Positions 1,361 through 19,920 of a stretch of 20,000 bases of DNA are shown in pieces (the first letter of the stretch is position 1; every line of letters starts with the position of its first letter). The notes beneath the pieces were generated by a model. The model had not been told where the DNA came from and did not search any database. It worked only from the letters and a program-made list of their open reading frames with translations. Origin of the DNA: Reclinomonas americana ATCC 50394 (Eukaryota). Position numbers and translations under genes: made by a program. The stretch lies in NCBI GenBank assembly GCA_048213135.1, contig PS015489.1, positions 115,024 through 135,023 on the forward strand. The letters run 5' to 3'.

Positions 1361-4300
1361 CTAGTGCGGGAAGAGCACGAATTCGACGGCAGGCGGAGGC
1401 GAGCGGATGAGATCGGTGGCGTCGGCGGCGATCAGGCGCACGGCGAGGAACGACATTTGCTCCAGAGCCACCACAGTGCTGTTGGCGGCCCACGTGCACA
1501 CCATGCGTTTTACGAAGCCGCTGCCGTCGCGTGGGAAGGCGTTGGGCGAGCGTGAAGATGTGGGCACCACCGGAACGCGGACCACGTGCATCCATGTGGG
1601 GTACGCCACACGGGCGCTCTCAAATACGCGCGGCCAAGGGATCTGTGCGGGAACGGGAATATGAGTGGCTGTCTCGCCAAGAGTCGAAGAAGCATCGGCA
1701 ACGTGCAACTCACCGATCGTTCGTAGCCATAGTACGGAACGTAGATGCGGATGGCGCGCCAGTCAAAGTCGAGCACGCACGCAGTGCAGCATCCGTCGAG
1801 CACAGAGGTGGCTCCGCGAGCGGCCAGTAGCTGCGAAGAAACCACGTGAGACCACCGCTTCGTTCGCAGAGAGAGAGAGGTGAGTGCCACGCAACTGCTG
1901 CCTGCTGCCTCAAGTTCTCCTGCACAAACAGCTCGGTGACTTGCTGCTGCACGTCACGTCTGAGCGACGTCAAGCGGTCGTGATGGAACATCTGCGAGCG
2001 TCTTCAGTTGCAGCTTTCACACATTTGGTATTCTATTTCAACGAACGTACCGCCCGGCGCAGTGTGGTGCGCGTCGGCATCGACAGCTTCTGCCCGATGC
2101 TCGTGCGCAGCATCTTGTGAACACCGCGATGCACCAGCAGATCCGAGTACCTCCGGATCGGACTGGTGAATTGCGTGTAGGCGTCGACGTTGAGCGAGAA
2201 GTGCATCAGGCCGGCCTGCGCGCGACCACACGTACTGTCAAGGAGGAGTAGAATATGCACAGCAAACACAACGACAACGCACTATTGCTTCGGTATTGGT
2301 GGTATCTGACACATCAAAAACGGTGTATCCGCCGGCACGCATGTACCGTGAAAACAGGTGAACCAGTGCCTGTGCGTGCACCATTCTCGAGTCAGTCTCA
2401 TGTACCGTCTCTCTATTTCGCGAGACGATAACAGTACCTCCTTCCTGACGTCCGAGTCGTTCAGTGCATCGACCAAGCGCATGCAGCGGCGCAAGTAGTG
2501 CAAATCGTCCTCTCCACGCTCCTCTTGCACTCGGAAAATGGCTTCGACGCAGCGCGCAAACGTCTGTCGGTGTGGTGACGGATCGCTGTTGCGTGCTGGT
2601 TGGTGGCGGAAAATGGCACCAAACTCCTGCAACTCCTGCCACTCCTCGGCCGTGCGTTGCTCCTCCGCAGGGCACGGTATCAATTCGCACACCGGTCCGA
2701 GTGTCGCCGGCACCGTCACTTCCGCTGCGCTCACAAACAATCACGCGAGGTGAGCTCACATGTGCGACGGTAAACTGCATCTTCGAATCACACCTTTGCC
2801 GCCACGTGAGGCACTCAGGCTCAAGAAGCGACGGAGATGAGCGGCGCAGTGCGTGTTGGCCAGATTCATGAGCTCCTCAATCATCTGTGCGGCCAAGTTC
2901 GGGCGCTCGAATGAAAGCTCCACAGAGCCCACTGTGTGCGTTGGCAGGGTGTGAGGCGACAGGGGGGAAATGAGGCGACACCAAACGACGACACTTGCAA
3001 GCACGCTCACCACCCGGCAACGCTGCGTCCTTGCGGTATGTGCCACCAAACACCTTCTCCGGACGATCGAGCGACAGCGCACCGCCAACCAGGCGCTGGC
3101 GGCGCAGGCTGGCGGTGATTCCGTACAGTGAGCGCACAGCGTTGAAGACATCCTCCACGCGCTCCGGCGGCACCGAACGCAAAGCGGCGGCCGACGGTGG
3201 GAGAGTGCCGTCGAGAATCGACTGCGCCGTCGGGTAGTCGAGAGCGACCCACGACGACACAACACTGGTGCACAGACGCGACGAGATGACGATAAAGTCG
3301 CCCGAGCCCTGTGCACACCACAAAAAGAGTGAGTGCGCACGAAAGATGTCACACGCATCTACTGAAGCAAACTCACCGGATCGTGGCGCACGCGCACGAG
3401 AACCGACAAGCACAAGCGCTCCGTGTTCGGGTTCAGGCTGCAAACGCCGGCCGAGATGCGCTCCGGCAGCATGGAGTCCACGGCACCGAATGGCGTGTAC
3501 ATGGAAATCGACGCCGCCTTGGCCGCCAAGTCGAGCTCCGATCCCTCGGGCACATAGGCCGCCACATCGGAAATGTGCACACCCAACTCAAACTCGCCAC
3601 CTGCGACTCGCAAATGTCAGCTGCAACTGCACGTACGAGTGCGGCAGTGAAGACGACAGACAAGCACGCACCACCGACATGGCGCAAGTGCACTGCATCG
3701 TCCATGACGTTGGTGTCGGGTCGGTCGATGGTGAAGACGCACTGTGCGCGCAGATCAACACGCTCCTCCAACACTGCACAGAGCATCTCGTGAACACATG
3801 CATCATCTGTCAATCCCACTTCCACCGACATGCAGCAGCGTACCCTTTGGATCGACACGCGCCTCGCTGCGCATGAGTCCCGGATATCGGTCGTCGACTG
3901 GCGCCGCTGTGGCGAATTCGGGGAGGCGGTAGAACAGTTCGGCGGCCTCGTCACGCACGCACTGGAATTGCAAAAAGTAGGCCACCTCCACGGTCTTCAG
4001 GTTGGAGGCGTCGCCCAGGACATCGGCCACACGTCGCACCGACGGGAAGCCTCGCTTCTCCGTCCAGTCGCCCAACTCCACCGAGAGGATCTTGCCCATC
4101 AATCCTTGCGGACCCGGCAGTTTGTGCGCATGCGCCGCACCCGTCATCTGCTTAATGTGCACGGCGCAGCGCGGCAGACGGCTGTTCAGCGGCTGAAGCA
4201 ACGTGAAGAATTCGCCGAGATTCGTCGAGTCGTCGAGGATGCCGACGGCGCGGACCACGCGCGGTCGGTCGGCGTACACGATCTCGCCAGTCACCACTGT

Positions 4301-4766
4301 TGCACAAACACCAGCAAATGATAACCAAGCACGAAACAGGGGGGAAATGCACAGGCATATCGCGGCACCTTCAGACAGTGTCCGGTCGCGCAGCGGGATG
4401 GGTGACGCGCTAACCTCGCCATCAGAAGTCGGCTGTGGCGCACAGTGAGCACGTTGCTCCTCAAACAGCACACATTGTTATCAATCCTCACACGTACCTC
4501 GTACAGGCTGACCACCACGTGGTCGCCATCGAGAGCACGATTGCGCAGCGTGGCTGACAGGATGCGCACGACACCACCATTGTCCAAGCCGACTTCGGCG
4601 TACGAGTCGCTCTTGCAGTAGAGGGTGCCCTCCATCAGCTTTCCCGATCGGCAGCCGGCGTCGAGTGACCGCGGCGACAAGTACGGAGTGTAGTTGTTGC
4701 TCGGCAGTCCTGGCGGACCGACTGCCTTGAGCGACGAGCCGCGTGGACGACTGCCACCGGCGTCAG
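1361..4766 (-). other. CSD1-CSD2-RNB-S1 region (DIS3/DIS3L2-type exonuclease core, no PIN domain)
   Basis: CSD1: [10 protein letters not shown]...GKLMEGTL...[17 protein letters not shown]2: PLNSRLP...[113 protein letters not shown]1: [22 protein letters not shown]. Confidence 0.93.
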
Positions 4767-7172
4767 CTGTGTGGCGAGGTGAGTGACAAGCACCCGACAG
4801 CAGGAGACATGAAGAAGTATGGACGAACCAGCAGCCGAAGCAGAGGGGAAGAGAGGACCACTGGTCACCTCGTCGACTGAGCCACCGTGCGCCTGGTTGA
4901 TGAGGATGGTATGTGTGCGAGCGCACGCGTCGACCAGCGCCTTGAGCAGCGGCGGCTTGTTGAAGGCCAGCAGATTGCAGTCGAATTGGACCGGATCCAC
5001 TGCGCGAGTAGGGAAAGAGGAAGATGAGTCGGGGGAAGTGATGCAGTGCGCTCTCGCCAGAATGCATGCACGTACCGACTACGAATTCACGCGCGTCATC
5101 TCCGACACGGTGAGACAAATGCACCGAGAGCGTCAGGTGATGGAGCGAGCACACGGCATCGGTTTGCCAATCAAAGTCACGCAGGTTGCCGAACAGCGAG
5201 AAAAAGTCGGCCACCACTGCTTCGGTCAGCGAGTCCTCCTGTTGACGGAAAAGCAGCAACATGAATACTCATAGAGCAAGCGCGCACACCACGCATTGCA
5301 CTATCTCTCTCACCTTCTTGGTGGGCACCGACAGAATTTCCGCGGCCAGATCCGACATGAGGAACGCGGTCTCGTCGTGCGACTCGGGATGGCGCACATC
5401 CTCCAGGCCGTGCGTCACCCACCCGGCCTGGAAGGCCTGCGCGCCGACCTTGACCATGAAGCCGCCAATCAGATCGGTCAGTGCGGGGAGGGCCAGGGCC
5501 GTCGAGTATGTCAGAGCTGGAGTGATCTGTGTTGACGTGCAGTCAGTCAGCATTGAGGGGGAGAAAGAGAGTTGGAGGAAGAGAAGAAACACGCAACATG
5601 TGGGTACGGCGCCAGCTGCTGGATGCGTGCATCTTGGAAACGCGCAAACACCACTTCGGCTAGCCGATCCAGCGCCTCAATACCGTCGGCACGCCGATTG
5701 CGCGACGTGCGCTCCAACACAAAGTACACCACCATGTGGGCGAGTGCCTCGAGCGAGATGGAGTCGTCATTCTCGAACCCCAACAGATCGGCACGGCACC
5801 ACGCGGTGAGTGACGGCAGCTTTGCTTGCAACGCCGCCACCACCTCTGCCGGATCCTGCAAGTACGGCACCGCGTAGCCACACGTGCGTGCCCAGTGAAT
5901 GACCGCATCCAGCAACTCCACAATCAGCTGTCGCTCTCGCGGTGTGTACGTCTCCAGTGCCTCATTCAGCGCCGTCATCTGCGACTCTAGTGTCAGTGGT
6001 TGCGGGGAGGGACACGACTGCCGAGAGACGCAACTCCAGCCATGCGCCAAAAGATGTTGATCGAGACGTTGAATCGCTGACTGGTGCACATGCAGTACAG
6101 ACCCGACTTGGCGCGATGCTTCATGCGCACGTCGGTGTAGTTGCCGGCTGAAGCACACACACACGAAATGGAAACAGAGTGTCAGAGGTAGTTCGAGAGG
6201 CGGGAAACAAAGGAGCAGAGAAGAGACAGCGCATAGAGAAAAAACGACAGACCTCTAGAGAAGGTGGCATGCTTCTCATTGAAGCAGAAATGTAACACTG
6301 AGTGCGGAGAGAGAGAGAGAGANNNNNNNNNNNNNNNNNNNNNNNNNNNNNNNNNNNNNNNNNNNNNNNNNNNNNNNNNNNNNNNNNNNNNNNNNNNNNN
6401 NNNNNNNNNNNNNNNNNNNNNNNNNNNNNNNNNNNNNNNNNNNNNNNNNNNNNNNNNNNNNNNNNNNNNNNNNNNNNNNNNNNNNNNNNNNNNNNNNNNN
6501 NNNNNNNNNNNNNNNNNNNNNNNNNNNNNNNNNNNNNNNNNNNNNNNNNNNNNNNNNNNNNNNNNNNNNNNNNNNNNNNNNNNNNNNNNNNNNNNNNNNN
6601 NNNNNNNNNNNNNNNNNNNNNNNNNNNNNNNNNNNNNNNNNNNNNNNNNNNNNNNNNNNNNNNNNNNNNNNNNNNNNNNNNNNNNNNNNNNNNNNNNNNN
6701 NNNNNNNNNNNNNNNNNNNNNNNNNNNNNNNNNNNNNNNNNNNNNNNNNNNNNNNNNNNNNNNNNNNNNNNNNNNNNNNNNNNNNNNNNNNNNNNNNNNN
6801 NNNNNNNNNNNNNNNNNNNNNNNNNNNNNNNNNNNNNNNNNNNNNNNNNNNNNNNNNNNNNNNNNNNNNNNNNNNNNNNNNNNNNNNNNNNNNNNNNNNN
6901 NNNNNNNNNNNNNNNNNNNNNNNNNNNNNNNNNNNNNNNNNNNNNNNNNNNNNNNNNNNNNNNNNNNNNNNNNNNNNNNNNNNNNNNNNNNNNNNNNNNN
7001 NNNNNNNNNNNNNNNNNNNNNNNNNNNNNNNNNNNNNNNNNNNNNNNNNNNNNNNNNNNNNNNNNNNNNNNNNNNNNNNNNNNNNNNNNNNNNNNNNNNN
7101 NNNNNNNNNNNNNNNNNNNNNNNNNNNNNNNNNNNNNNNNNNNNNNNNNNNNNNNNNNNNNNNNNNNNNNNN

Positions 7173-7254
<82 letters not shown>

Positions 7255-8103
7255 GGGAGGGGGAGGGAGAGAGCCCAAGAAGATCCCCAACTCTGGAGAT
7301 GCGAGCGTGCTCCTCAATGAAGCAGACATGCATCACCAACTGCTCATACAGAGACCAAGAAGAGATCTCTGAACTCTCAAACTCAGGGGAGACAAGAGCA
7401 ATCAGTGAAGCAGACATGGTGCTCACAGAGAGACTGTGAGACCAAGAAGAGATCTCTCTCAACCCAGCTTTGGCAAAGATGAGCACGCTCCTCAGTGAAG
7501 CTGCCATGACGCACCAACCTCATTCACTGCTCTTCCCAACTGCTCGTGGAGGAGAGATCACTACCCTCACTTCCCAATGCTCAGTGAGCGCCACCCATCT
7601 CCCATCTCCCATCTCCCATCTCCCTTCTCACCCTGCTTGAGTCGCCGAATGACATCCTTGATGGCGGCGACGCGTGCATCGGGATCGGCCTCGCACGTCG
7701 GCACCGCCGGCAATACCACATGCGACACCGACGCATCGACAAACGCCGGCACCGACTCGCGCTCAATCAACGACACTTGCAGAATGTCGCGCGTCGAGTG
7801 CAATGGCAGAAACGGCGACGCAGACAAGAGCACAGGATGACACTCAATGCCTACACAATGCGCGCCAAAAATTGATCAGCAATCAGAGACAAGTCAAACT
7901 GTCGCTGTTACTTCAGTGCGCGCGCATGTATATGTGTATGCAGAGAGAGCAGAGAGAGAGCGAGCGTGTGTGTGTGTGTGAGACAAGTGCGTGCGTTTGT
8001 GCGCGCGATGGTCGTGACACATGACCACGCAACTCTTGTGTGGCACGGCCAGTGCGACTTCCAGCTCGCGCAGACATGCCGCGCGTTGTGCGTCCAAGTC
8101 CAT
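1361..8103 (-). CDS. DIS3L2/RNase II-family (RNB) 3'-5' exoribonuclease with an N-terminal degenerate Cid1/TUTase/Trf4-like nucleotidyltransferase + PAP-associated module; about 1303 aa, 20 exons
   Basis: Exons: 8103-8034, 7850-7632, 6147-6035, 5978-5598, 5526-5314, 5238-5076, 4999-4829, 4766-4498, 4432-4369, 4296-3844, 3773-3672, 3600-3377, 3308-3011, 2931-2794, 2724-2438, 2369-2283, 2215-2051, 1991-1896, 1830-1714, 1642-1361. All introns are GT-AG, phases are consistent, and the total of 3912 nt ends in TAG. Extra exons could be hidden in the N gap. Confidence 0.8.
6307..7250. repeat. (GA)n microsatellite flanking the gap (6307-6322 and 7172-7250)
   Basis: Perfect GA dinucleotide runs on both sides of the N run. 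Confidence 0.95.
6323..7171. other. Assembly gap (849 N)
   Basis: Run of N flanked on both sides by (GA)n. Confidence 1.
7271..7520. repeat. Degenerate intronic tandem repeat, unit about 80-90 nt, about 3 copies
   Basis: GAGACCAAGAAGAGATCTCT at 7351 and 7438, with a variant at 7271. TGAAGCAGACATG at 7318 and 7406, with a variant at 7496. A related TGAAGCAGAAATG lies at 6280, on the other side of the gap. Confidence 0.7.
7594..7624. repeat. (CCCATCT)4 heptamer tandem repeat at the 5' end of the long intron
   Basis: cccatctcccatctcccatctcccatctccc. Confidence 0.9.
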
Positions 8104-8451
8104 TGTGAATGCGCGGGCTTGTCACAACAACCACGACAAAAAGGAGTTGTCCTGCAGCTGCATGCATGCAAACCCAGCGACGTCGAAGCTAGTCGTTCGC
8201 TGCCAGCTCATTCTTTGTACGCTTTACATAATGCTGCATACAAGTCGTCTGTGCAGCGAGCCTGATCGCGTCACGTCCATGCATCTTGCGCGACGTCGTG
8301 CATTGCAAACTTCGCCGTGAAGAATGCACCAGCTTGCTTCACACAACATGCACTACACCGCTTGAAGATGCATCGTACACCACTCTGTCTCAGAAGAAAG
8401 CTGTGATCGCATGCGCACAGGACACGCGATTGCACGGACCCCCACCCATAA
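8104..8451. promoter_or_regulatory. Putative bidirectional promoter / head-to-head intergenic region (348 bp)
   Basis: Lies between the divergent ATGs at 8103 (-) and 8452 (+). Inferred from gene geometry only; no core motif identified. Confidence 0.45.
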
Positions 8452-9665
8452 ATGCGTCTTTTGAGCGCAACTTGCTTTGCACTTGCTCTGTGCCTGGCCG
8501 TGGTGCTGTCGCTCAGCGCAGCGCCCACTCATGCAGTGCCACCCACCATGCCTCTGTACTATCAGATGGAGTGGGTGCTGTGGCATGTTGCGTTTGTGTT
8601 TCTCCGAGGTTGACTGCACACACTCCAACTCACTCGCGCGCACATCAGGTGGACGAAGACAACATCCCGCCTCCATATGGACTCACTCCGCCTCCGAATG
8701 CGCATGTGGAACAAGGCCGCGGTCGCACGTTTTACGACTGGACGCAGCGCGCAATGATCGAGATGTGTGTGCACAAGAAGAAGCTTGTGTATTGTGTGGA
8801 TCGTCAGCTGCTCATCTTGTTTTTTGGTTGCAGTTACGACGACTTTTGTGTCAACATCTTCCCCGATCCCACTGACCATCCGGGCCCATGCAAGTTCCTC
8901 AATGTCAACGAGACCTCGTTTCGCACCACTCTGCGTCGACTCATCACTCGCAGCCGGAGGTCTCACTCGTTTGACTGAACGCAGGTACTTGATCAACAGT
9001 GATCCGGTGCACTACCCCAACGATCCCGTGTGCTGCGTGTTTTCGGTGCGTTTTTTGCCGCGATGCTTGTGATGTCGTGTGTCGTCTCACTGCGGCAACA
9101 GCACAACTTCCATCCTCCGGCGCCGACCTTCTTGATCGACAACAAGGATGTGATCCCGAATGGAGTTGCGTGACTCTCGCTTCCGTCTCTTGCTCTCTGT
9201 CTGCGACCTCTCATCTGTGCTGTGCAGATGTCGTACATTGGCTCGGCTCCGGTTCGTGGCACTCATGCGAAGCGAGAAATGCGTGCGCTCACTCACGTGT
9301 GTGTTGCAGGTCACCTGGTACGAGGTGCCGAAGGGTGATGGCGCGCCATTCAACTATGGGTGCGGAATATCTCCCGTCGTCACTCATCCTCTGCAGCACT
9401 CTTGCTCACCTTCTTTGTCCTCGCTCAGCTTCTACGACGAGAAGGCGCCGGTGCCGGCCGCCTTTAGCTTCCCTGCCGTCACGGTTCGTGGGCGCGTGCT
9501 GTGCTCACCGTGTCACGCCTTCGTGAGTTCTCACCTGTGCAATTGCGCACGCAGGGTTGGGACTGGCAGCGCTTCTACAACTTCCGCGCCGCCAAGCCTG
9601 ATCCGAGCGTCTTCCACCTGGATCCGCGTTGCCTCACTGCCGACTACTGCAAGATCCACCTGTAA
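8452..9665 (+). CDS. Secreted ependymin-related (EPDR/LolA-fold)-like protein, about 232 aa, 9 exons
   Basis: Exons 8452-8586, 8649-8764, 8834-8917, 8985-9045, 9102-9164, 9228-9251, 9310-9359, 9429-9483 and 9555-9665 have consistent phases and end in TAA. Signal peptide MRLLSATCFALALCLAVVLSLSA, then PPTMPLYYQ, GRTFYDW, CCVFSHNFHPPAPTFL, and C-terminal FYNFRAAKPDPSVFHLDPRC, which resembles EPDR-like proteins. The gene model is secure; the family call is tentative. Confidence 0.7.
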
Positions 9666-9866
9666 TGCGACGCCGCGTTCACCAACAACAGCAGCAACAA
9701 CACAACACAACAAATTTCAATTTTTTCAACGTAGGCACAAAAAACATCTCAACATTTCGAGAAAAAACACAGTGAACAACAACAACACAGAGAAGCACAC
9801 GCAGCTAATCACGGTGTTCTCTTTTTTAAGAGTACAAATACAGCAGTCTTGCAACTGCAAAACGGA

Positions 9867-12800
9867 TTAGAAGAGTTTGGTGAGGACGTCGCCGACTATC
9901 AGTTCCACGCCGAAGCAGCCGCACAGGGACATGGTGAGGAGTTTGATGGGCTCTGTCAAACGGCGGTTAAGACTCTGCTCTGCTGCACAAGCGGCGCGTA
10001 CATGTAAAGCACACTCACCGTTGATGAGCCAGTCCTCGAGAATGCTGAAAGCCGACGAGTTCAACACCGACCGTGATTCGGATTTCACCAGAATCGCGGC
10101 CGTGTTGAGCAGCGCCAAAAACGTGCAGAAAGCACCTGCAGCACATGTGTTAGGGGGACGTCACAACACCAACTGCTGCGGCCGCAACGCACACACACGT
10201 ACCAATAGTCCAGCACGCCGCCAGACCCCAGTACTGCGTGGGGAAAATGCCAAAGTTAGTGATCAGCAGCAAATGCACGCGCGACGACAAGAACAACGTG
10301 TGTATCGCACCACGAGTGTGTATGGCAGTGTTTTGGCTCGATACCGAGCAAAGAGACGACCGAACCAGCCTGAACATGAACACACGGTGGAGTTGGTATT
10401 GTTTCATGCAACAAGTCAGGGGATACTACGACACCTTTGCCGGTGACATCCGCAGCGACAAACTCGTTATCCAAGACACTGTTCAAGTCGGCAGTATTCT
10501 CGTTTGCTTCCGCGGAGCTGTCGTTGTTGTCCGGAGATCGCAGTGCTTTGTGGCGCACCAACGGGACTTTAACAGGGGTGCCCGAATGCGCCGACTCCAC
10601 GTCCGACTCTGCCACCAGACGACTTGATCATGAGCACACAAGCATGCACAAAAACATAAAATGAATGCAACACTTGCCATCGTCACTCCACGAAGCAACG
10701 TCGTCTCCAATCAGCAACAGGTGCTTTGTTGGCGTGCCCTGTCGGTGAAAGAAAACAATCAATGAGCACGGCAGGAATGAACACATAATTTCTGGCGGCA
10801 CGCACCGGAAGGGAGCCACCGTCGCTAGCGAGCGCACCGGTCATCCTCTGTCGTTGTTGGTTGGCCAACATCAACGGCAGCGGCGGAAGACGATGCCTGC
10901 CCCTGTGTTCATCCGGCTGTTGTGGCTCGCCTTGCGCGCCTCTGGCCGCCAGCAACCTCGTCAACCATCCACTTTGCCCTTGGCTGACCATCAACGGCGC
11001 AGTTGGCCGCATCTCCGTGGGCGATATCTGACCGGAACGAACGAAGGCCACCATTGCCTGTCCATCCTGCTTGCGCACTCAACTCGTCAGTAGCTGCAAC
11101 AGCATCGCGAGACACCACCAGCACGATATCAAACCGTCGGCACCGGCACGATTGGAATCAAATCAGGCAAGCGGCCATCGTCGGTGCTGACAGTGAGCGG
11201 ATGCGGCGGCTTTTGCACGAGCTCCACTGAGGTGTTCGAGTCCGTTCGTGACACTGCACATGTAACACATGAGACGCAAGAAATGGCAGACGCGCCTTGG
11301 AGGGATGACGACACGCTCACCAGTGCTAGCGCTCATAATCGAGTGCCTCTTGCCATCTCCCTCAGCAGCATCAATCTCGCGCACCAGCGCCTTCAACTTG
11401 GTGAGCTCGCCAACCTCGAAATACGTGTCGCGGAGCGTCACGCGCGGAGTATGATCTGCGAGATTCATCAGTCTCGAGTAAAACGCGATAAAGCGGTTGG
11501 CAAGTGATTTGGGTCCGCAACTGAATGGTATGCTCATCAAGAACGCAAAGGGGAATACGATCAAGCCTGCAATCACAACACACAACATGAGCCAGAGTGC
11601 ATTCTGGGGTAACAAAAACAAAGCTTCATCTCACACGCACCAGTAATGATGCCTGCATAGCCACACATGAGGTAAAAGGTGAGAATATTGCACATGTCTT
11701 CTTGCGGCAATAAAAACGAGGCACATACCAATGTAGAAATCGCGCAGGAGGTCGGTGAGCAACGACGCCTCGGCCTGGTTGGCAAAGATGCTGTTGATCC
11801 ACATCATGAAGCACACGGTGACCCAGAGCGTCTGCACAACACCGTTAGTTGCCGACAAGCACTCAGTTATACGCTATCGCCGCTGACGAAACAGTGAGGC
11901 GCTGGTACTTGCGGAATGGATCGATACGAGTGCCAAACACGGTAGAGAGCCTGCAATTAGAGAGAATGCACCACGGTGTCAGGAGATGCACGCGCGCGCC
12001 ACGATATTCAGTGTCGATTCACTTACCAAGCGTGGTGGTGCAGGAAAAGGCTTCGGGTTTTGGCTGTCCACTTGACGAAACGATTGCGCTCTCGCTCATG
12101 CTCAATCACACGAGTCACCAAGCCTGCGAACAAGAACAAGACCAAATCAGTTAGCAGACGAGAAGAGCGGTGGTGCGAGTGAGTACATCGACGAACCGCG
12201 GAATCGTGCAATCGCCTCCATGTGCACACGGATCGCCTCACGCTCACTCTCGGGGATGAGCTGTTTTTCCTGCTCCGGCTCTGCGTCATCGTCGAGCTCC
12301 TTGCCATGCCCACTGCTCTCCTCCCCACCGACAGCCTCCCTCTCGCCATCCAACGGCATGTCCACCGTGGTCTCCACAACACCCGTTCCGGCCGCAGTGA
12401 CCTCCTCCGCCCGAGCCTCGGGTGCCGACAGCAGTGCCAGCGGGGACTCGGAAACATCGCCGGGCGTACGTCCGTGCGACCGCTCAGCACTGGCAGCACT
12501 CGCCGAACTGTCAGTCCGCATGCGAGTGAGAGGAGAGGCTCTGGCACCCAGCGATGAGGAGCGGTTGCGCAGTCGGAAGGGCGAGCTGGACGACGAATTC
12601 ATGTCTTCGTCAGCCAGCAGCGCCTTGTCGCCTTCGCCAGCAGCCGCAGCCGCCTTGGCCGCCAGTTGCCGCCGCTGACGCATGACCGCCATTACGACAT
12701 CGCTGCCAAAAGACACCAGGGAGTTGAGTGGAGAGTGCAGTGCAAGTATCAGAGAGCAGTGGTTGACGCACGCGAATGAGAAGATGCCACGATACGGTGG

Positions 12801-15800
12801 GAGGTCGGCCTGCGAGTGCGCAAGACATGAGTGAGATCATCCCTTGCGCAGCGATGCGGATGCAAGTGAGAAAGACCTCAGATCGTTTCAGAGCACGCCG
12901 TGCAATGATGCGTCGCGCCCAGTACTCTCGCACCGCCAGATCGTTGGCTTTGTCGATCTTCCGCAGCACAAAGTAGAGAATCACGTACGCAATGTGAAGC
13001 ACTGCATGCGACGACTTGTTCAGTTCAAGAGCTGGCATTGAGACGTGCACGAGTGCTGCAACGCAACGCAAGAGGAAGAAAAAGTTGGGGCTGACCCACA
13101 AGGCGGGTGTCAACAACAATCCGATTTCGGCCGGACTCGTAAACGTGAACTGCAAGTCAAAGATCTACACGAGCACGCACAGTGTGAGAAGGCAATCACA
13201 GACGCACTACGCAACATGAGAAAGAGAGCAACGTACTGCTGCCACGTCCACGGAGAAGTCCGTCGCATGATTGCAGGCACAGTACACGCTGGTCAGATTG
13301 CCAGAGGCACCGACAGTGGCGAACGAACGGCAGCCCGCCGGCGAGAATGCTTGCGCAGTCTGATGACGAGCTGCCATGAGTACCACGACACGACGACGCG
13401 AGAAGCACAACGAAAAAGTCGCAACTGGGTCCCAGGCGACGCACAGATCCAGGCGCCGCGGCAAGACACCCGAGGTGATGTTCAGCGCGTGCGGCATTGT
13501 GGTGTTGCAGATATTATCCAGTGGCACAAGACCGGTGGGGATCGAGAACGTGGCATTGCACTGTGTTGACCAAGTGAGAAACGTGCAACAAAGCATTGTG
13601 TAAGACAATCCCCACGTCGCACACAGCACACACCAGTCTCATTGCTTGCAGCACCTTGCGCTGTGAGGCAGAGCATGTCTCAGACAAATTTCGTACTTCT
13701 GCTGCCGCACACACAACAAAGGCAGGTGACGCACGAAATTCTCTTGCACGGCATCCGGAATCACTTGACCGCCCATCTTGATGAGGAGCTCCTGCGGCTG
13801 ATTCTTGACTTCGATGGGTGAACCACGGCTGTCGTAGAACTCGATTCGGTGAATCGGTGCAGCGAGCCACGTGCGCGCCTGCTTCGTGGCCAGGATGCTG
13901 GTGTATGGATTGGTCGAATTGGAATGCTGCACCACAAGCGCCGTGGCATCGTTGAGCGTTGAGTTGAGTGACTGCGTCGCCAGCAACACCGAGCCAAGGT
14001 GGGAAGTCGCTGAGTCGTCCGCCAGCAGTGCGCCAGTTGGATTGGCACCAGAGTACGACTGCACATGCCGGCAGTTCAGCACTGCTGCCCAGCATCACTC
14101 GAGCACAATACACACACACGTACCTGCACGCCAGGCGCGTCCACGTTGTTCGTCAACCGAGCGCCGACGATGCGAGAATACGCGCCACCCGAGTAAACAA
14201 AGGGATCGTCAGTCGCCTGCACACATTTTCCATCAGTCTCTCACGCGCACACACATTCATGCACATTGAGATCGAGGTGTCACGCACGCGCTGGGCGACA
14301 GAGGCCTTGACCACGTTCTCAACCACCGCCGAGCTGCGATCAACAATGGCATTGAACAGAGTCGACTTGCTGTCTGTGGTGGCCGATACCGATGTGCTCA
14401 GCAGCGAGTCGGCAATCTGGAGCACATGCTGGGAGACACAACAGTGGACACGTTGTTAGCGGCAGCGTGATCGCAACACACAACCACAATGAGGTTACCT
14501 CACGCTCGGCGGAGGTCAACACAGAGCTGGAACTGGCGACGTTTTGCAACGCCGACATGACTCCATCGGCCACGCCCGCGACAGTCACTGACGTCGGTGA
14601 CAGAAGCGGAACAGAGCTACGCGAAGAACATAGAGTGAGAGGAAGGAGCGTCAGCGCGGTTGCACGAGGCGCTCAGTCATCAATGTGTGCAGACCGCCCA
14701 CCTGCTGAGAATACGAGCACTCTGCAGCACCACTCGCGCCGCGTCCGGGAACGCTTGGCCGTCGATCAGTGACGACGCGCTTCCAAGGCGCGACGCCATC
14801 ATCGCCAAGTAGTTCTCAACCTGCGGACCTGCGTCACGATAGCACACTCGCCGCATTAGCGACACGGACGTGACGTACACAAACGCAAAACCAAGTGTAT
14901 CGAACCATTTCCGCCATTCAACACCTGCTGCAAGTTGGCGGAACCGTCGGCAAGGCTCAGCGTGGAGTACAAGGAACATGCCGCAGTGATGGCTTCTGAG
15001 GACGTGGTGAGTGGGCCTGCTGCGGTTGCCGCTGCCGCCGCCGCCGCTGATTCTCCGACAAATGCGTTTGCGCGACCGAGGGCCGTGGAGAGAGCCGGAT
15101 CTCGCGCCACCGTCACCGTCGTGGTAGCCGAGGTACTGCGCAATGAATGGGTCAGCCCAACTGCGCACTTGTGCTGCCAAAACGCACTAGGAACACGAAC
15201 CCTGCCAGCAAATTGTCATACACCGTCACGCCCACCGACAGAATGTTGCCGTCGCTCACTCCCGCCGGCAGAGTAACACCCGCAAGGGTCGAAGAGGGCT
15301 GTGAACCCAAAGGGACCATGGAGCCGGTAGCAGACACGTAAAAGAACGTGTAGGACAGCGGCACACTGCAGCAAGTTGCTTGAGCACGGGGACGGAAGAA
15401 ACAACAGCCGGCGAGAGAGACGCAACTCGTCATCAGTAAAACCAGCGGCCGTGATTGTAAACTTGGTGGAGCGTTCAACGCCACTGGCGGGCGAGATCGA
15501 GACGGTGCCCAGCGAAGGCGGACGATTCATCTCCAGGGTGATCGAACCGGTGGCGGAGTCTGTTCGACCGGTGAGTCGACGAGGATATTACGTGCCCACA
15601 ACCACATGACGCAACTAGATCCGGTGACGTTCAGCACGATCTGGTACTTGCGGCCGGCGGTAAATGTGTTTGCCGGCACAGTGAGCGCGCTGCGGTTGCT
15701 GTTGGTGGCCAGCGGCACCGGTGTGTTGGGAGTCGAGGTCACATCCGTGACCCCCCACGAGTAGTTGACAGAGTCGCCGGCAGCCAGTGACACCTTGCTG

Positions 15801-18800
15801 TCCACCAGAATAATCTTCGCCGCATCGTAGCGCGACAATGACACTCCGCCAGACGTCGTCTGCGCACAATGAAGGATGAGTGCCACGATTTGCCGAAGGG
15901 AGAAGAGACCAAGTGGATCGCTGACACACCGTCAACAAGACGCCGACCGAGCCAGCGACAGTGAACGACGCGGTGGCGGTGGCGGATCGCCCGCCGCGCG
16001 AAGCACTCACTCGGAAAGTGTACCTATGTGCGAACGAGATAAGCGACCATGGGAAGTCACGTGAAACCTTCAGTGAGACGACGCAACACTCCGGCCACCA
16101 GCTCGGTGCCCGACAACTGGATGGACTCGGCAACACTATTGTCGCGAGCACACGGTTGTGCTTTGCTGCCGTCGGCAGGTGTCACTGTGCACGCCCAACT
16201 GACTGTCGCAGGCGCCAGGTTCTGCACAACTGACAAATCAGCAATCGCCGAAGAAACAAGGGCCCGACACACACCACGAACCAGAATCGGTGCCGTTGCC
16301 GCGTCCGGATCGCGCAAGACCGCGGTGAGCGTCTTGGTGCCGCCCACAGGCACCGAGCCACCGTCGCCATCGATAGCCAAGCTGAGAGGACGAGTCACTG
16401 CAGGGGACAGAATGGTGCGACGGTGAGCACGCTCGTGTCAGCACAGCATGCAGGAAAACACACACAGCCGTACCCAGTGCCTGCACCCGCCACCCGGAGC
16501 GCTGATCGGTCTCATTTGAGATGAAGCGGATAGCACCGGTGTTGACACCGAGCAGTATCGACTGCGTGGGCACGGTGGAGCCAGTGAGCGCCAGCCGGGT
16601 CACCGCTTGCCCAGCGTCGGCGTACAGCGTCAGCGAGTCGTCGGTGGCCAAATCGAGTTGCGTGACCAGCACGACCACGGTGCCGGAAGAGGTGACACCC
16701 GATGCAAGCTGGGGAAAGGAAGGATGAGGAAGAGTACACACTCTGGACGACACACACACGGCGCACCCCGAATGTCCACGTGCAGTCGAGATCCGGCATG
16801 TAGGCCGGCACACTGGTGGTTCGGTCGGCCAGCGTCACCAGTGTTCCCGGCGTAAGCGTCACGGCGGTCAATGCGGCACAGGTGGGTGTGGCCACCGTCA
16901 GCGAGACTGGAGTCTTGACAAACGCGGCGACTGCGTCCTGATAAAAGTCGACGCACAGGTCGACTTGCACGCCACGCGCCTCAGTGGACGGAGACGCGAT
17001 GCGAAGTAGTGCCGTACGTCCATAATCGGAAACGCTGACAACAGTGACCGTGTAGCCAGTGGCGTTGTTGGCCGAGCACGACGAGCCGGCCAACACCGTC
17101 CTCCACGAGTCCACGCGCGACAGGCCACTGCTCGGCAGGCGCACCGTGCGCGCCACAGTCATACCGGACACCAGTGTGGGATTTGCGGCCGTCATGGTGG
17201 TGACGTCGGGAACAGGAATAATGTGCTTGATGCGCCCTTGACTGTTGATGGAACGCTCGCCGGCAACGACCCAACCAGTCTGCCGATTCACATCGAGACC
17301 GTCGCCGTACATGATCATATTCGTGTCGGCATTGGTCAGCCCAGCACAGCGGTCCGTGCCGCTCTTCGTGAACGGCTTGTATTTGAGAGCATCGCGCATC
17401 GGGATGTCGTCCTATTCGAGTGCGCTTCTCGGTGAGTGACGGACGATTACAGGCACACGGAGGGCAACTGCTGTCTGCACGCAACAAGCACAGACGTCGG
17501 AACAGCGGCTGACAGCGAGGTGGAGCCTCTGTTGGGGCCACAGTATGTGGCAAGACTGCCCATGACAAGAACAGCTGGGAGCGCGTGGTCGCTGGTGTCG
17601 AACGCCCACAACTACGAACAGCAAAGGAGGTGAGTGATGGAGGAAGTGGGAGACACGCAGTGCGCGACGCAACTCCGCTTGTCGAGAGATCGTACACATA
17701 CATGATGTTGTCGGGTCCTTGCGCTACACACACACAGTGGCACGTCAGGAGACGGAGGGAGAGGCAGAGAAATCACGAAGGTAACGCACCCAGTACACGA
17801 GGGGCGGGGATGGCCGAAGTGGCGGCCACGGTGGAGATGACGCCGTTCCGATCCACGTAGCGCACAGCAAAGCTCGGCCCCTCACTCTCCGTGTAGTAAA
17901 AGCCGCCGTTCTTCGACAGAATCACATCGGTGGCCGACGATGCAGTGGCGCTCGTCGCCGGGATCTGCTCGCCGCCAAAGACGCTATTATTGGTGCCGTT
18001 GCCGGCAACAAATCGCTGGCCCGACACCGGATTGTTGAGAGGCACCCAGATAACCTGTGTGTACAGGTGAGATGGACGCGACCTGGAACACAAAAAGCAA
18101 TAAAGTGAGAGAGCCACGCAACTCCACTGCCACCGTAGCTGGCAGCCAGTAAACCAGGCGGCGGAGTCGGCAGCTGCACGTTGGAGGTACCGGCCGGCAC
18201 GAATCGCGGGTGGCGCAGATTGGTGGCAGGAGCAGCGGCGGGAGCGAGGACCTGCAAGTTCGTCGGATTGCCCGACGCATCCAGATTGGAGACTGCACGG
18301 GTGCGTGAGTGGACGAACAGCGCTAGCGCGCGCACAACACATTGCCACAACAAGCGTACCCAGAACACGGCCACCGGTCCACTCGTTGAAGTAGACCTTC
18401 GTGCCGTCGGTGTTGAAGTCCAGCGCGTGCAACACCTGCGCAGCGAGTGAGGTCACATTTCTCTCGTGCTGCTGCGAAGGAGACGCAACATTGGGCGTGC
18501 GCGTGGCAGGCGAGCCGGGAACCGCGGGATCGGTGGCCATCGAGTACGCAGCGTTGCAGACGCCAACAACCGGAGTGAGATTGGTCATCGCACCAAAGTT
18601 GAGCAGGTCCACATCGTAGCGCTTGCAGCAACTCGAATCCGTCGAGCACGCCCACACACTGCCCAGCGTCGGATGGATCTTCAAACCCACAACGTTCCTC
18701 AAGCCAAGCGCCGCCGTGTTCACGGAAACCACGCGGAAAACCGGGCGCGGAATCGGCGAGTCAATCACCAGCGTTGTCGGACCTGTAATCATCATGGTAC

Positions 18801-19356
18801 GATAAGCCAATCAATCACACTTGTGTGACAGCGCGCCTGAACACACCATCGTCTCCACTGAAGGCTGCCGAGCCCGCGAACTTGGCACACAACCGATAGA
18901 GATCCGGTTGGGCATTGCGCGGGACCGCAATGATGACAACGAACGAGGCATCGCTCTGGCGAACCGCGCTGGTGATTGATATCAATGTAGAGCTGCTCCC
19001 TGCCGCACACGTCTCTGCGTTGCGCACAAACGCCTGCACAGAGAGAGAGAGAGAGAGAGCGGGGCGGGAGTGAGTGGGCAATGTCACACTCACCACACGA
19101 AAACTCTTCTCGCAGCGCAGCGCTCATGCTCAACAAATGAATCCGTGTCACTGAAGTTCGTGCTGCCTGCTGCGCCTGACATGTTCAACCGCAGGCCACG
19201 AGGTGCGCTCTTTCCCGCGACAATCGGCACACCGGGACTGCTGTCCACAATCGTGATGAAAGCGGCGGGAGACGCAGCGGCCATACTCGCGCACAGCACC
19301 AGCATTGTCACGGCCACTGTCACCAGCGACGCAGTAACAAGCGCGCGGGTCCTCAT
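9867..19356 (-). CDS. Polycystin-1/PKDREJ-like cell-surface receptor: signal peptide, NHL-like propeller, CUB, REJ, GAIN/GPS, 5 TM; about 43 exons
   Basis: ATG at 19356 starts a signal peptide (MRTRALVTASLVTVAVTMLVLCASMAAA). The spliced frame is continuous to TAA at 9867 through about 42 short introns. REJ: NRPPSLGTVSISPASGVERSTKFTITAAGFTDDDVPLSYTF. GPS: CVAWDPTAQAFSPAGC...CACNHATDFSV. PKD1-type TM motifs: HAWLSTVFGTRIDPFRKYQRLTTLWVTVCFMMWINSIF, IGIITGLIVFPFAFL, LPYTLVYWGL, SAFSILEDWLINEPIKLL. Confidence 0.85.
10609..10677 (-). other. GC-AG intron
   Basis: Donor G|GCAAGT and acceptor GGCAG|. This join keeps the frame (WSDD-E-SDVES); nearby GT alternatives give a frameshift or a TAG. Confidence 0.7.
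13237..13450 (-). other. GPS motif (C-terminal end of the GAIN domain)
   Basis: After removing intron 13360-13425 the sequence reads CVAWDPTAQAFSPAGC...VYCACNHATDFSV, closely followed by TM1. Confidence 0.85.
15100..16400 (-). other. REJ module of the PKD1-like protein
   Basis: LSLAIDGDGGSV...LRDPD, VSWAC, YTFRVSA, YSW, LTVPANTFTAGRKYQIVLNVT, NRPPSLG, PLSYTF, TLPAG, VYDNLLA. Confidence 0.8.
16474..16880 (-). other. CUB domain of the PKD1-like protein
   Basis: YMPDLDCTWTF...VVVLVTQLDLATDDSLTLYAD...LTGSTVP...AIRFISNETDQRSGW. Confidence 0.75.
17200..18782 (-). other. NHL/teneurin-like beta-propeller repeats of the PKD1-like protein
   Basis: VAGNGTNNSVFGGEQIPATSA...DVILSKNGGFYYTE...VRYVDRNGVISTVA; ALDFNTDGTKVYFNEWTGGRV; GLDVNRQTGWVVAGE. 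Confidence 0.7.
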
Positions 19357-19920
19357 GGAGGAGGCACGAGAAAGAGGAAGAGAGAGACGAACGCGCGCAA
19401 AGACGGCGATGTTCAAATATGGCAATCAGAGCGAGCCATGTATTGTTGTCCAAGCCGGGACAATCGCAATTACATTGAATCTTTCCATGGTGAGCGCGCG
19501 CGCGCAGTGAGGCAGTGTGTGTGGCGCGCAGAGAGCGAGTGTGTGTTTCGCAGCAACAAGAGCAACAGGGAAACGAAAGATCGTGTCGTGTTTTTTGTGT
19601 GTGCGTGGTGATGTGAATCAGCACATGTCTCACTCTTTTTTTTGTTTCGTCGGCAGCGCGTCAAGGTGCTTTCGCGATCGGCGGTGGTGCACAAGGGCGA
19701 GAGGAATGGTGATTTGGTGCCGACGTTTCGCAACTTGAAGCCGTCGTTGCATCCGCTGGAGAGGGAGCGCGAGTACACGAGGGCGGTGACGGCGGCCAAG
19801 ATGGAGCGAGTTGCGTGGGGAGAGAAGAAGGGAGAGGAGAAGGGAGAAGGGATGGAGAGAGAGATGTGATGAGAGGAGGCGATTTGGTGGTGATTGCGCA
19901 ATCATGGGATTGAGAGGAGG

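Follow-up and report, generated by a model that had tools for sequence, protein, structure and literature searches.

Organization of the predicted fusion gene

The window analysed here is a stretch of 20,000 nucleotides from Reclinomonas americana ATCC 50394 (assembly GCA_048213135.1, contig PS015489.1, positions 115,024 to 135,023), and its DNA is intron-rich and eukaryotic, with a GC content of ~58%. A three-frame reading of the minus strand yields a gene model at 8103–1361 with 20 exons, 1303 amino acids and no internal stop, in which a nucleotidyltransferase (NTase)-like N-terminal region is followed by two cold-shock domains and an RNB exonuclease domain. All 19 introns are of the GT-AG type; 17 of them are 56–79 nucleotides long, intron 1 has 183 nucleotides, and intron 2 has 1484, including 850 N. 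The donors of introns 1, 3, 4 and 18 (at 8033, 6034, 5597 and 1895; 4 of 19) read GTTGCG and thus vary the GTRMG pattern that most other introns show.

The N-terminal region is encoded by exons 1–7, all on the minus strand. Exon 1 (8034–8103) contains the predicted start and residues 1–23, which likely form the helix preceding the first palm strand, and has a codon score of 6.5 (–10.0 and –6.1 in the other frames). Exon 2 (7632–7850, residues 24–97) covers the region where the GS and DxD motifs are expected; it has no Gly, and its Asp45 lies at 7788–7786. The sole Asp-x-Asp of this exon, D79-P80-D81 (7678–7686), is predicted to cap a helix and not to lie in a strand. Exon 3 (6035–6147, residues 97–134) carries an ARVP-like strand and the third-Asp strand, with Asn123 (AAC) at 6070–6068. 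Exon 4 (5598–5978, residues 135–261) would supply the helices of the central domain, with an SSY-like helix at residues 208–222, and exon 5 (5314–5526, residues 262–332) is an insertion with no family match. A segment resembling the poly(A) polymerase-associated domain follows in exon 6 (5076–5238, residues 333–387), and exon 7 (4829–4999, residues 387–444) holds a sequence like the nucleotide-recognition loop, D388-P389 ... C394-N395, and a linker after it.

The GC content at third codon positions is 0.76 for residues 1–430 and 0.77 for residues 465–1303, compared with a GC content of 0.53 in 18 introns (intron 2 excluded). With a codon score trained on exons 9–20 of the same gene, each of exons 1–8 (8/8) scored above zero in the frame of the model and below zero in both alternative frames. 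These two results indicate that the front exons are coding and have not decayed. The junction between exons 7 and 8 lies in gap-free sequence with a 62-nucleotide GT-AG intron, and the only Met in residues 380–520 is M488, within cold-shock domain 1, which leaves no room for the start of a separate downstream gene. The NTase-like front and the nuclease half are thus very probably parts of one polypeptide.

Relation of the N-terminal region to the Cid1 family

The preliminary description of this DNA had assumed an NTase fold for the N-terminal region. Motifs of the Cid1 family are indeed found in order, from the ARVP-like strand to the recognition loop, whereas homology of the palm is the weak link. 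In Pfam, the exons of this half gave a match only for exon 6, to PAP_assoc (PF03828; E-value 0.042, 14.6 bits, below the cut-off of 22.6). None of eight exons matched an NTase model of NCBIfam, and none of six matched PADLOC at an E-value of 10, so that no match to CD-NTase profiles (cGAS/DncV-like or OAS NTases) was seen, short exons lowering the sensitivity of both scans.

Six proteins whose motifs are intact served as references for further comparisons; four are loci of the same assembly (C51, C288, C6 and C273), and two are the database proteins P0029 and P0030. HMMER and hhalign both placed residues 84–230 on the ARVP strand, the third-Asp strand and the following helices of the reference profile. 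An ordered-block test used segments of the six references as blocks and 1000 shuffles as background. The complete set of eight blocks reached 48.5, a score attained by 1–2 of 1000 shuffles and by none of 118 real RNB-family windows. Restricted to the six blocks that span the ARVP strand to the DP loop, the score was 45.6 (0/1000 shuffles, z = 4.5), and the last three blocks alone were reached by 4/1000 shuffles (z = 3.6); these counts come from several block sets and carry no multiple-test correction. In MAFFT, exon 2 was 29–33% identical to four active exons, with Val, Ser and Asp invariant. These results suggest that the N-terminal module is highly likely to be homologous to the Cid1 fold, a proposal that rests mainly on residues 100–390.

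A tblastn search with residues 1–445 against the NTase loci in the genome gave nothing below an E-value of 1, pairwise BLAST of exon 3 with an active third-Asp exon gave no alignment, and MAFFT put exon 3 in the wrong register. Exons 4 and 6 had no relevant match among the PDB sequences. Single-exon folds were of low confidence, with a mean predicted local distance difference test (pLDDT) value of 42.0 for the exon 4 frame and 53.8 for exon 2, in which no strands were formed and the only confident element was a helix at residues 80–95.

Catalytic positions of the N-terminal module

The 21-residue segment ([21 protein letters not shown]) that the preliminary description had placed where the GS and DxD motifs are expected was located on the minus strand in exon 2 (7850–7632), and the segment NVSINIF, given there as the third-Asp strand, in exon 3 (6147–6035), with its Asn at the third-Asp position being Asn123. 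Asn123 was also the top third-Asp register, with a score of 6.0 against 3.4 for the runner-up. The reported lack of a GS motif held as well: hG[GS]x7-14[DE]h[DE] had no match in the six frames of 4801–8600, and within spliced residues 1–445 G[GS] pairs occur only at 282 and 425–426, with none in residues 1–281 and hence none near the expected site.

Four registers of exon 2 were considered for the GS and DxD positions. Register 1 pairs L31-L32 with T43/D45, and was the best ungapped placement in exon 2, with a score of –2.6, which is not above shuffles. Register 2, from MAFFT, pairs L32-S33 with D45/L47 and is the same as that of the preliminary description. Register 3, found by eye against reference C6 and outside the top eight scored registers, pairs V49-S50 with D62/S64, and register 4, from the block search, pairs V65-S66 with D79/D81. 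The earlier statement that at most one Asp is present therefore applies to three of the four registers, whereas register 4, which had gone unmentioned, is the only one to keep two. None of the four offers the Gly or all three catalytic carboxylates, and the GS and DxD blocks alone, which score no better than shuffles, do not single out one register. As further candidates for the catalytic pair, D353-F-D355 was rejected as lying in the PAP-associated segment, and E53-R-E55 for its charged middle residue.

In Cid1, D160A alone or D101A/D103A is reported to abolish transfer, with RNA binding retained in D160A (PMC13702519), and D280A of Tailor is reported to be inactive (PMC6344859). The ordered Cid1-family motifs, the weak PAP_assoc match, the Asn in place of the third Asp and the missing Gly-Ser support the earlier view of a catalytically dead NTase module of the Pol beta fold, and the N-terminal module very probably has no tailing activity. 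The more specific label of a pseudo-terminal uridylyltransferase (TUTase), as opposed to a pseudo-poly(A) polymerase, was not borne out. Cys394 lies six residues past Asp388, as His336 lies six past Asp330 in Cid1 (by a gapless count, not a structural alignment), and His336 is described as the main determinant of UTP selection in Cid1 (PMC13702519). With Cys at the His336 place, a TUTase ancestor is no better indicated than a poly(A) polymerase ancestor.

Intron 2 and its unread gap

Intron 2 (6148–7631, minus strand) runs from phase 1 to phase 1 over 1484 nucleotides and consists of GA microsatellites, a tandem repeat of ~88 nucleotides and an assembly gap (6323–7172) of 850 N between GA repeats. 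The ~88-nucleotide repeat is present in three copies (7270–7510), and contig C10071 (L032) carries 159 nucleotides of it again, at 97%, among simple repeats. No second allele spanning the gap was found in the assembly, which gave single matches only; C10071 shares just the intronic repeat and GA runs.

The preliminary description had raised the possibility of an exon hidden in the gap. That part of the caveat stands insofar as 850 bases are unread, but such an exon is not needed and would leave Asn123 unrepaired. The end of exon 2 and the start of exon 3 are both in phase 1, so that they can join in frame, and D45 and the ARVP-like strand are already 64 residues apart, the upper limit of the reference range. 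Since the gap lies upstream of Asn123, the third Asp could not come from a hidden exon. Two possible cassette exons, with codon scores of 0.2 and –4.3, occur in those portions of intron 2 that were sequenced, and one 20-codon window within the ~88-nucleotide repeat has a codon score of 10.6 and no motif. The assembly often has gaps of N in simple repeats: five loci checked contain 12, and four of these fall in the 10 kb of the C291 Dis3L2 locus. A longer exon 2 that reads on in frame into intron 1 was rejected, as it requires a frameshift; the codon score of intron 1 is at most 5.5.

The nuclease half

Exons 8–17 encode two cold-shock domains and then the RNB domain. Exon 8 (4498–4766) contains the linker and cold-shock domain 1, of the Dis3L2/Rrp44 type, exons 9–10 (3844–4432) contain cold-shock domain 2 (OB_Dis3, E-value 3.5e-7, in exon 10), and exons 11–17 (2051–3773) contain the RNB exonuclease domain, which was matched on five exons (best E-value 4.1e-20). 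Exons 18–20 (1361–1991) encode a C-terminal region at the place of the S1 domain, with the stop codon at 1363–1361; exon 20, the one of these three that was scanned, had no Pfam hit. No PIN domain was matched among the 16 exon pieces scanned. With exon 12, the PDB entries ranked highest were mouse Dis3L2 (47.3 bits), RNase R (46.4) and yeast Rrp44 (32.1), and it is this ranking together with the architecture that gives the label "Dis3L2-like". The RNB domain itself is 31–42% identical to all subfamilies alike, and in an approximately unbiased test on a tree of 16 rows (C36 being excluded for low coverage), none of four RNB placements was rejected (p = 0.60, 0.30, 0.54 and 0.12).

The preliminary description had taken the nuclease half as given. 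The cold-shock and RNB architecture agrees with this, whereas one of the four active-site Asp residues is lost. Compared with human DIS3L2, the active-site motif DxxxxxDxDD (3697–3726, minus strand) reads D722, V728, D730 and D731, so that the three metal ligands are kept and the second Asp is replaced by Val. In RNB enzymes, the first, third and fourth Asp are described as binding Mg and the second as binding the 3'-OH, and the four-Asp motif is described as conserved in all known active members (PMC8097288). Dss1, however, tolerates Glu at the second position (PMC8097288), and Asp209 of RNase II, called the most critical residue (PMC3293843), has an intact equivalent here; the SPIRRY motif is also retained. 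A change of the second Asp may leave partial activity in RNase II, although the literature searched on the activity of second-Asp mutants yielded nothing beyond one general passage. That the RNB domain still cuts RNA is slightly more probable than not.

In other Dis3L2-like proteins seen in this work, P0025 and P0026, an extra N-terminal cold-shock-like repeat is present and the RNB motif ends in Glu-Cys or Glu-Ser instead of Asp-Asp; these two are likely pseudonucleases.

Genome context and neighbouring genes

The fused gene is present as a single copy in the assembly, which also contains Cid1-family loci with GS and DxD at C51, C288, C6 and C273 (with the third Asp also visible in three, in the pieces read), a Dis3L2-type gene with all four Asp at C291, probably present again on C338, and further RNB genes, namely an Rrp44-type gene at C54, a further Dis3-type gene at C2965 and another RNB gene at C36. 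Since canonical Cid1-family and Dis3L2 genes are present, the fused gene is by this comparison an extra copy, apparently divergent and fast-evolving, beside a complete standard set. Look-alike pairs were seen for C273/C369, C6/C4, C291/C338, C36/C37 and C2965/C6571, which suggests either that two haplotypes are present or that duplication was recent; the fused gene lacks such a partner. The intact TUTase-like genes at C6 (L018) and C288 (L024) carry long acidic insertions in the central domain. An intronless, bacterial-looking RNase R-type frame of 690 residues at C2 (L003) and a short, bacterial-looking NTase with GS and DxD at C4573 (L026) were also found. The assembly thus seems to include bacterial contigs, and these loci may not all belong to one organism.

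Searches for an orthologue with exon 4 gave none among 4731 candidates and none among 597 metagenome pattern matches. The exon 12 search returned 24 RNase R-type proteins, with an NTase domain listed in none, and the stop-free frame at 4498–5238 returned four proteins of the cold-shock/Dis3 type, for which Pfam lists no NTase domain.

Downstream of the fused gene, at 1–1143 on the minus strand, lies a gene with a Mem_trans match (PF03547, E-value 4.3e-5), which we take to be a membrane transporter of the auxin-efflux-like group. On the other side, a small multi-exon gene at ~8560–9670 on the plus strand stands head-to-head with the fused gene; the two frames scanned gave no Pfam match, and the gene presumably resembles those for ependymin-related proteins. 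One or more large multi-exon genes occupy ~11100–19600 on the minus strand, with a weak REJ match (E-value 0.0018) and late hydrophobic segments, and are presumably polycystin-1-like.

Proposed function and alternative explanations

The explanation that we favour, with a probability of roughly 45%, is that the dead Cid1-like fold acts as an adaptor without catalysis of its own, placed ahead of an exonuclease that is weakened yet still works, and that any tails are added in trans. A spare tailing enzyme and a spare nuclease of the Dis3 family would likely have been fused, with the canonical copies keeping the routine work. The dead fold may then have been retained for its surface, binding RNA or a partner protein, as does the first N-terminal module (NTD1) of TUT4, which lacks two of the three carboxylates, has a closed pocket and is described as helping to form an RNA–protein complex through its surface (PMC6488673). 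Such an adaptor could hold substrates beside the cold-shock funnel. Their 3' ends would then be shortened slowly by the RNB domain, which retains the three metal ligands and lacks the Asp for the 3'-OH, and the intact Cid1-family enzymes of the same genome would be responsible for any tailing in trans. If the other steps are granted, the adaptor role is itself probable. In a more specific and rather doubtful version, a tailing enzyme was fused to its downstream exonuclease and later silenced, and it survives as a module for reading or docking that passes RNAs tailed in trans directly on to the nuclease, as a one-chain fossil of the TRUMP complex. The preliminary description had likewise proposed a scaffold or RNA-binding module, possibly one selecting tailed substrates, but the closed pocket of TUT4 NTD1, which admits no 3' end, weighs against such a selection in the old active site.

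Several observations count against the adaptor explanation. The 20-exon splice structure is predicted from sequence, 850 bases within its span are unread, and no orthologue was found that would demonstrate conservation. The RNB domain lacks the second Asp of its motif, and in the best tree it forms a long branch outside the eukaryotic clade. If the comparison with TUT4 NTD1 holds, its closed pocket also tells against the proposal. The fold is affected as well: exons 2–5 and 7 had no Pfam match at an E-value of 1, residues 1–445 ranked fourth with the HMMER profile, behind 3 of 500 shuffles, and the hhalign probability for the N-terminal region was 0.27%. The reference set behind these profiles has only six rows, of which four are approximate splicings made in this analysis. 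In the block test, true family members, each left out in turn, scored 122–235 against 48.5 here, and the GS and DxD blocks alone were at chance level (553/1000 shuffles). The ESM Atlas gave a weak lead for exon 2 to WS_DGAT_C (0.88, 106 features shared) and not to an NTase, and no lead for exon 4.

These points bear unequally on the alternatives. Loss of the second RNB Asp to Val would also fit a protein in which both halves are dead, that is, an Ssd1-like RNA-binding regulator composed of a pseudo-transferase and a pseudo-nuclease, in which the cold-shock domains bind RNA without cutting. Copies of Dis3L2 are described as having repeatedly lost activity after duplication, and a homologue in which not all four Asp are present "may be assumed" to be a pseudonuclease (PMC8097288); the canonical Dis3L2 in the genome and the long RNB branch point the same way. 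However, the Asp residues reported to bind Mg are all kept and the lost one is the ligand of the 3'-OH and not of metal (PMC8097288), the equivalent of the most critical residue, Asp209 (PMC3293843), and SPIRRY are intact, and Dss1 tolerates a substitution at this very position, though Val is a larger change than Glu (PMC8097288). We consider this alternative rather unlikely. The chance-level score of the GS and DxD blocks, the hhalign probability, the weak Atlas lead and the missing strands in the low-confidence exon 2 fold, together with a score for the ARVP and third-Asp blocks alone that 110/1000 shuffles reached, would be expected if only the helical central and PAP-associated part were derived from Cid1, or if the N-terminal fold were unrelated, in which case exon 2 would form no palm and a "dead active site" would be meaningless. 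Yet adding the blocks for the ARVP strand, the third-Asp strand and the next helix to the last three raised z from 3.6 to 4.5, all in order, the MAFFT identity of exon 2 to the four active exons points to a palm, and HMMER and hhalign agree on the placement of residues 84–230, all of which makes this explanation improbable.

An active, unusual transferase, acting through D79/D81 or an exon hidden in the gap and forming a one-chain tail-and-degrade machine, is very unlikely. With a spacer of 3–6, the block search did choose ADPDARV for the DxD block (score 10.5), Ser66 is found 12 residues further upstream, at a distance that also occurs in reference C288, and the unread bases leave room for an exon. 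On the other hand, Pro stands between D79 and D81, the confident helix at 80–95 makes the pair a helix cap, the Gly is absent, and the distance from D81 to the ARVP-like Ala109 is 28 residues, compared with 34–64 in all six references. Moreover, nothing in the gap would repair Asn123, which lies downstream of it, the phases of exons 2 and 3 match, and gaps of N flanked by repeats are frequent in the assembly. Still less probable is an artefact, in which the apparent fusion would come from two adjacent genes, from a false scaffold join over the gap or from a pseudogene in decay. That the gene model is a prediction, that the gene is a single copy and that protein searches with single exons found no orthologue would be compatible with an artefact, but the junction of NTase and nuclease is gap-free, its GT-AG intron is short and a second gene could not begin there, the 1303 codons run without stop or frameshift, with coding-type codon use in exons 1–8, exons 1–2 fit no other gene, and the upstream neighbour is on the opposite strand.

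If the one-chain fossil of TRUMP were real, it would be the first pseudo-nucleotidyltransferase built into a nuclease of the RNase II family. In flies, tailing and 3'-5' decay are described as coupled through the two-protein complex TRUMP (PMC6344859, PMC7988573), and the fossil would provide a natural test of whether this coupling works by catalysis or by contact alone. A single chain that keeps the transferase fold and drops its chemistry would reveal a non-catalytic job of the fold in feeding a nuclease. The weight of this proposal is limited, coming from one genome and a gene known from its DNA sequence alone. An NTase–RNB fusion was not found in protein searches (single-exon queries, which are weak) or in literature titles and the beginnings of abstracts.

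Comparison with known systems

The N-terminal region shares with the Cid1 family (Cid1, Trf4/5, URT1 and GLD-2; PF22600 and PF03828) the order and spacing of the ARVP-like strand, the third-Asp strand, the central helices, the FF helix and the DP loop. Unlike that family, it has no GS, no DxD in register, Asn for the third Asp, Cys at the His336 place, and insertions in exons 2, 4 and 5. With NTD1 of human TUT4 and TUT7, the Lin28-interacting module (PMC6488673), it would share a Cid1-type palm and fingers, at most one of the three carboxylates, and a position in front of another enzyme module. The partner in TUT4 and TUT7 is described as an active transferase, with a zinc finger preceding it, whereas the partner here is an RNB exonuclease and the likeness is near the detection limit.

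In Drosophila TRUMP, which consists of Tailor and Dis3L2, a fold of the Cid1 family is likewise physically tied to a Dis3L2-type nuclease (PMC6344859, PMC7988573, bioRxiv 10.64898/2026.03.27.714668). TRUMP is described as a pair of separate chains, with the TUTase active and the connection made by DUF1439 and a zinc finger; in contrast, the gene studied here predicts one chain, its transferase motif is lost, and it bears no sign of a preference for U. The nuclease half shares two cold-shock domains, an RNB domain and the lack of a PIN domain with Dis3L2 and its fungal pseudonuclease offshoot Ssd1, as these are described (PMC8097288), but differs from them in the NTase-like N-terminus of 430 residues, in having three of the four Asp residues, and in an RNB domain about equally near all subfamilies. 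Overall, dead NTase modules such as TUT4 NTD1 and degenerate Dis3L2 copies such as Ssd1 are each already known, and their fusion is the new part, by which this gene would extend two known themes into one gene.

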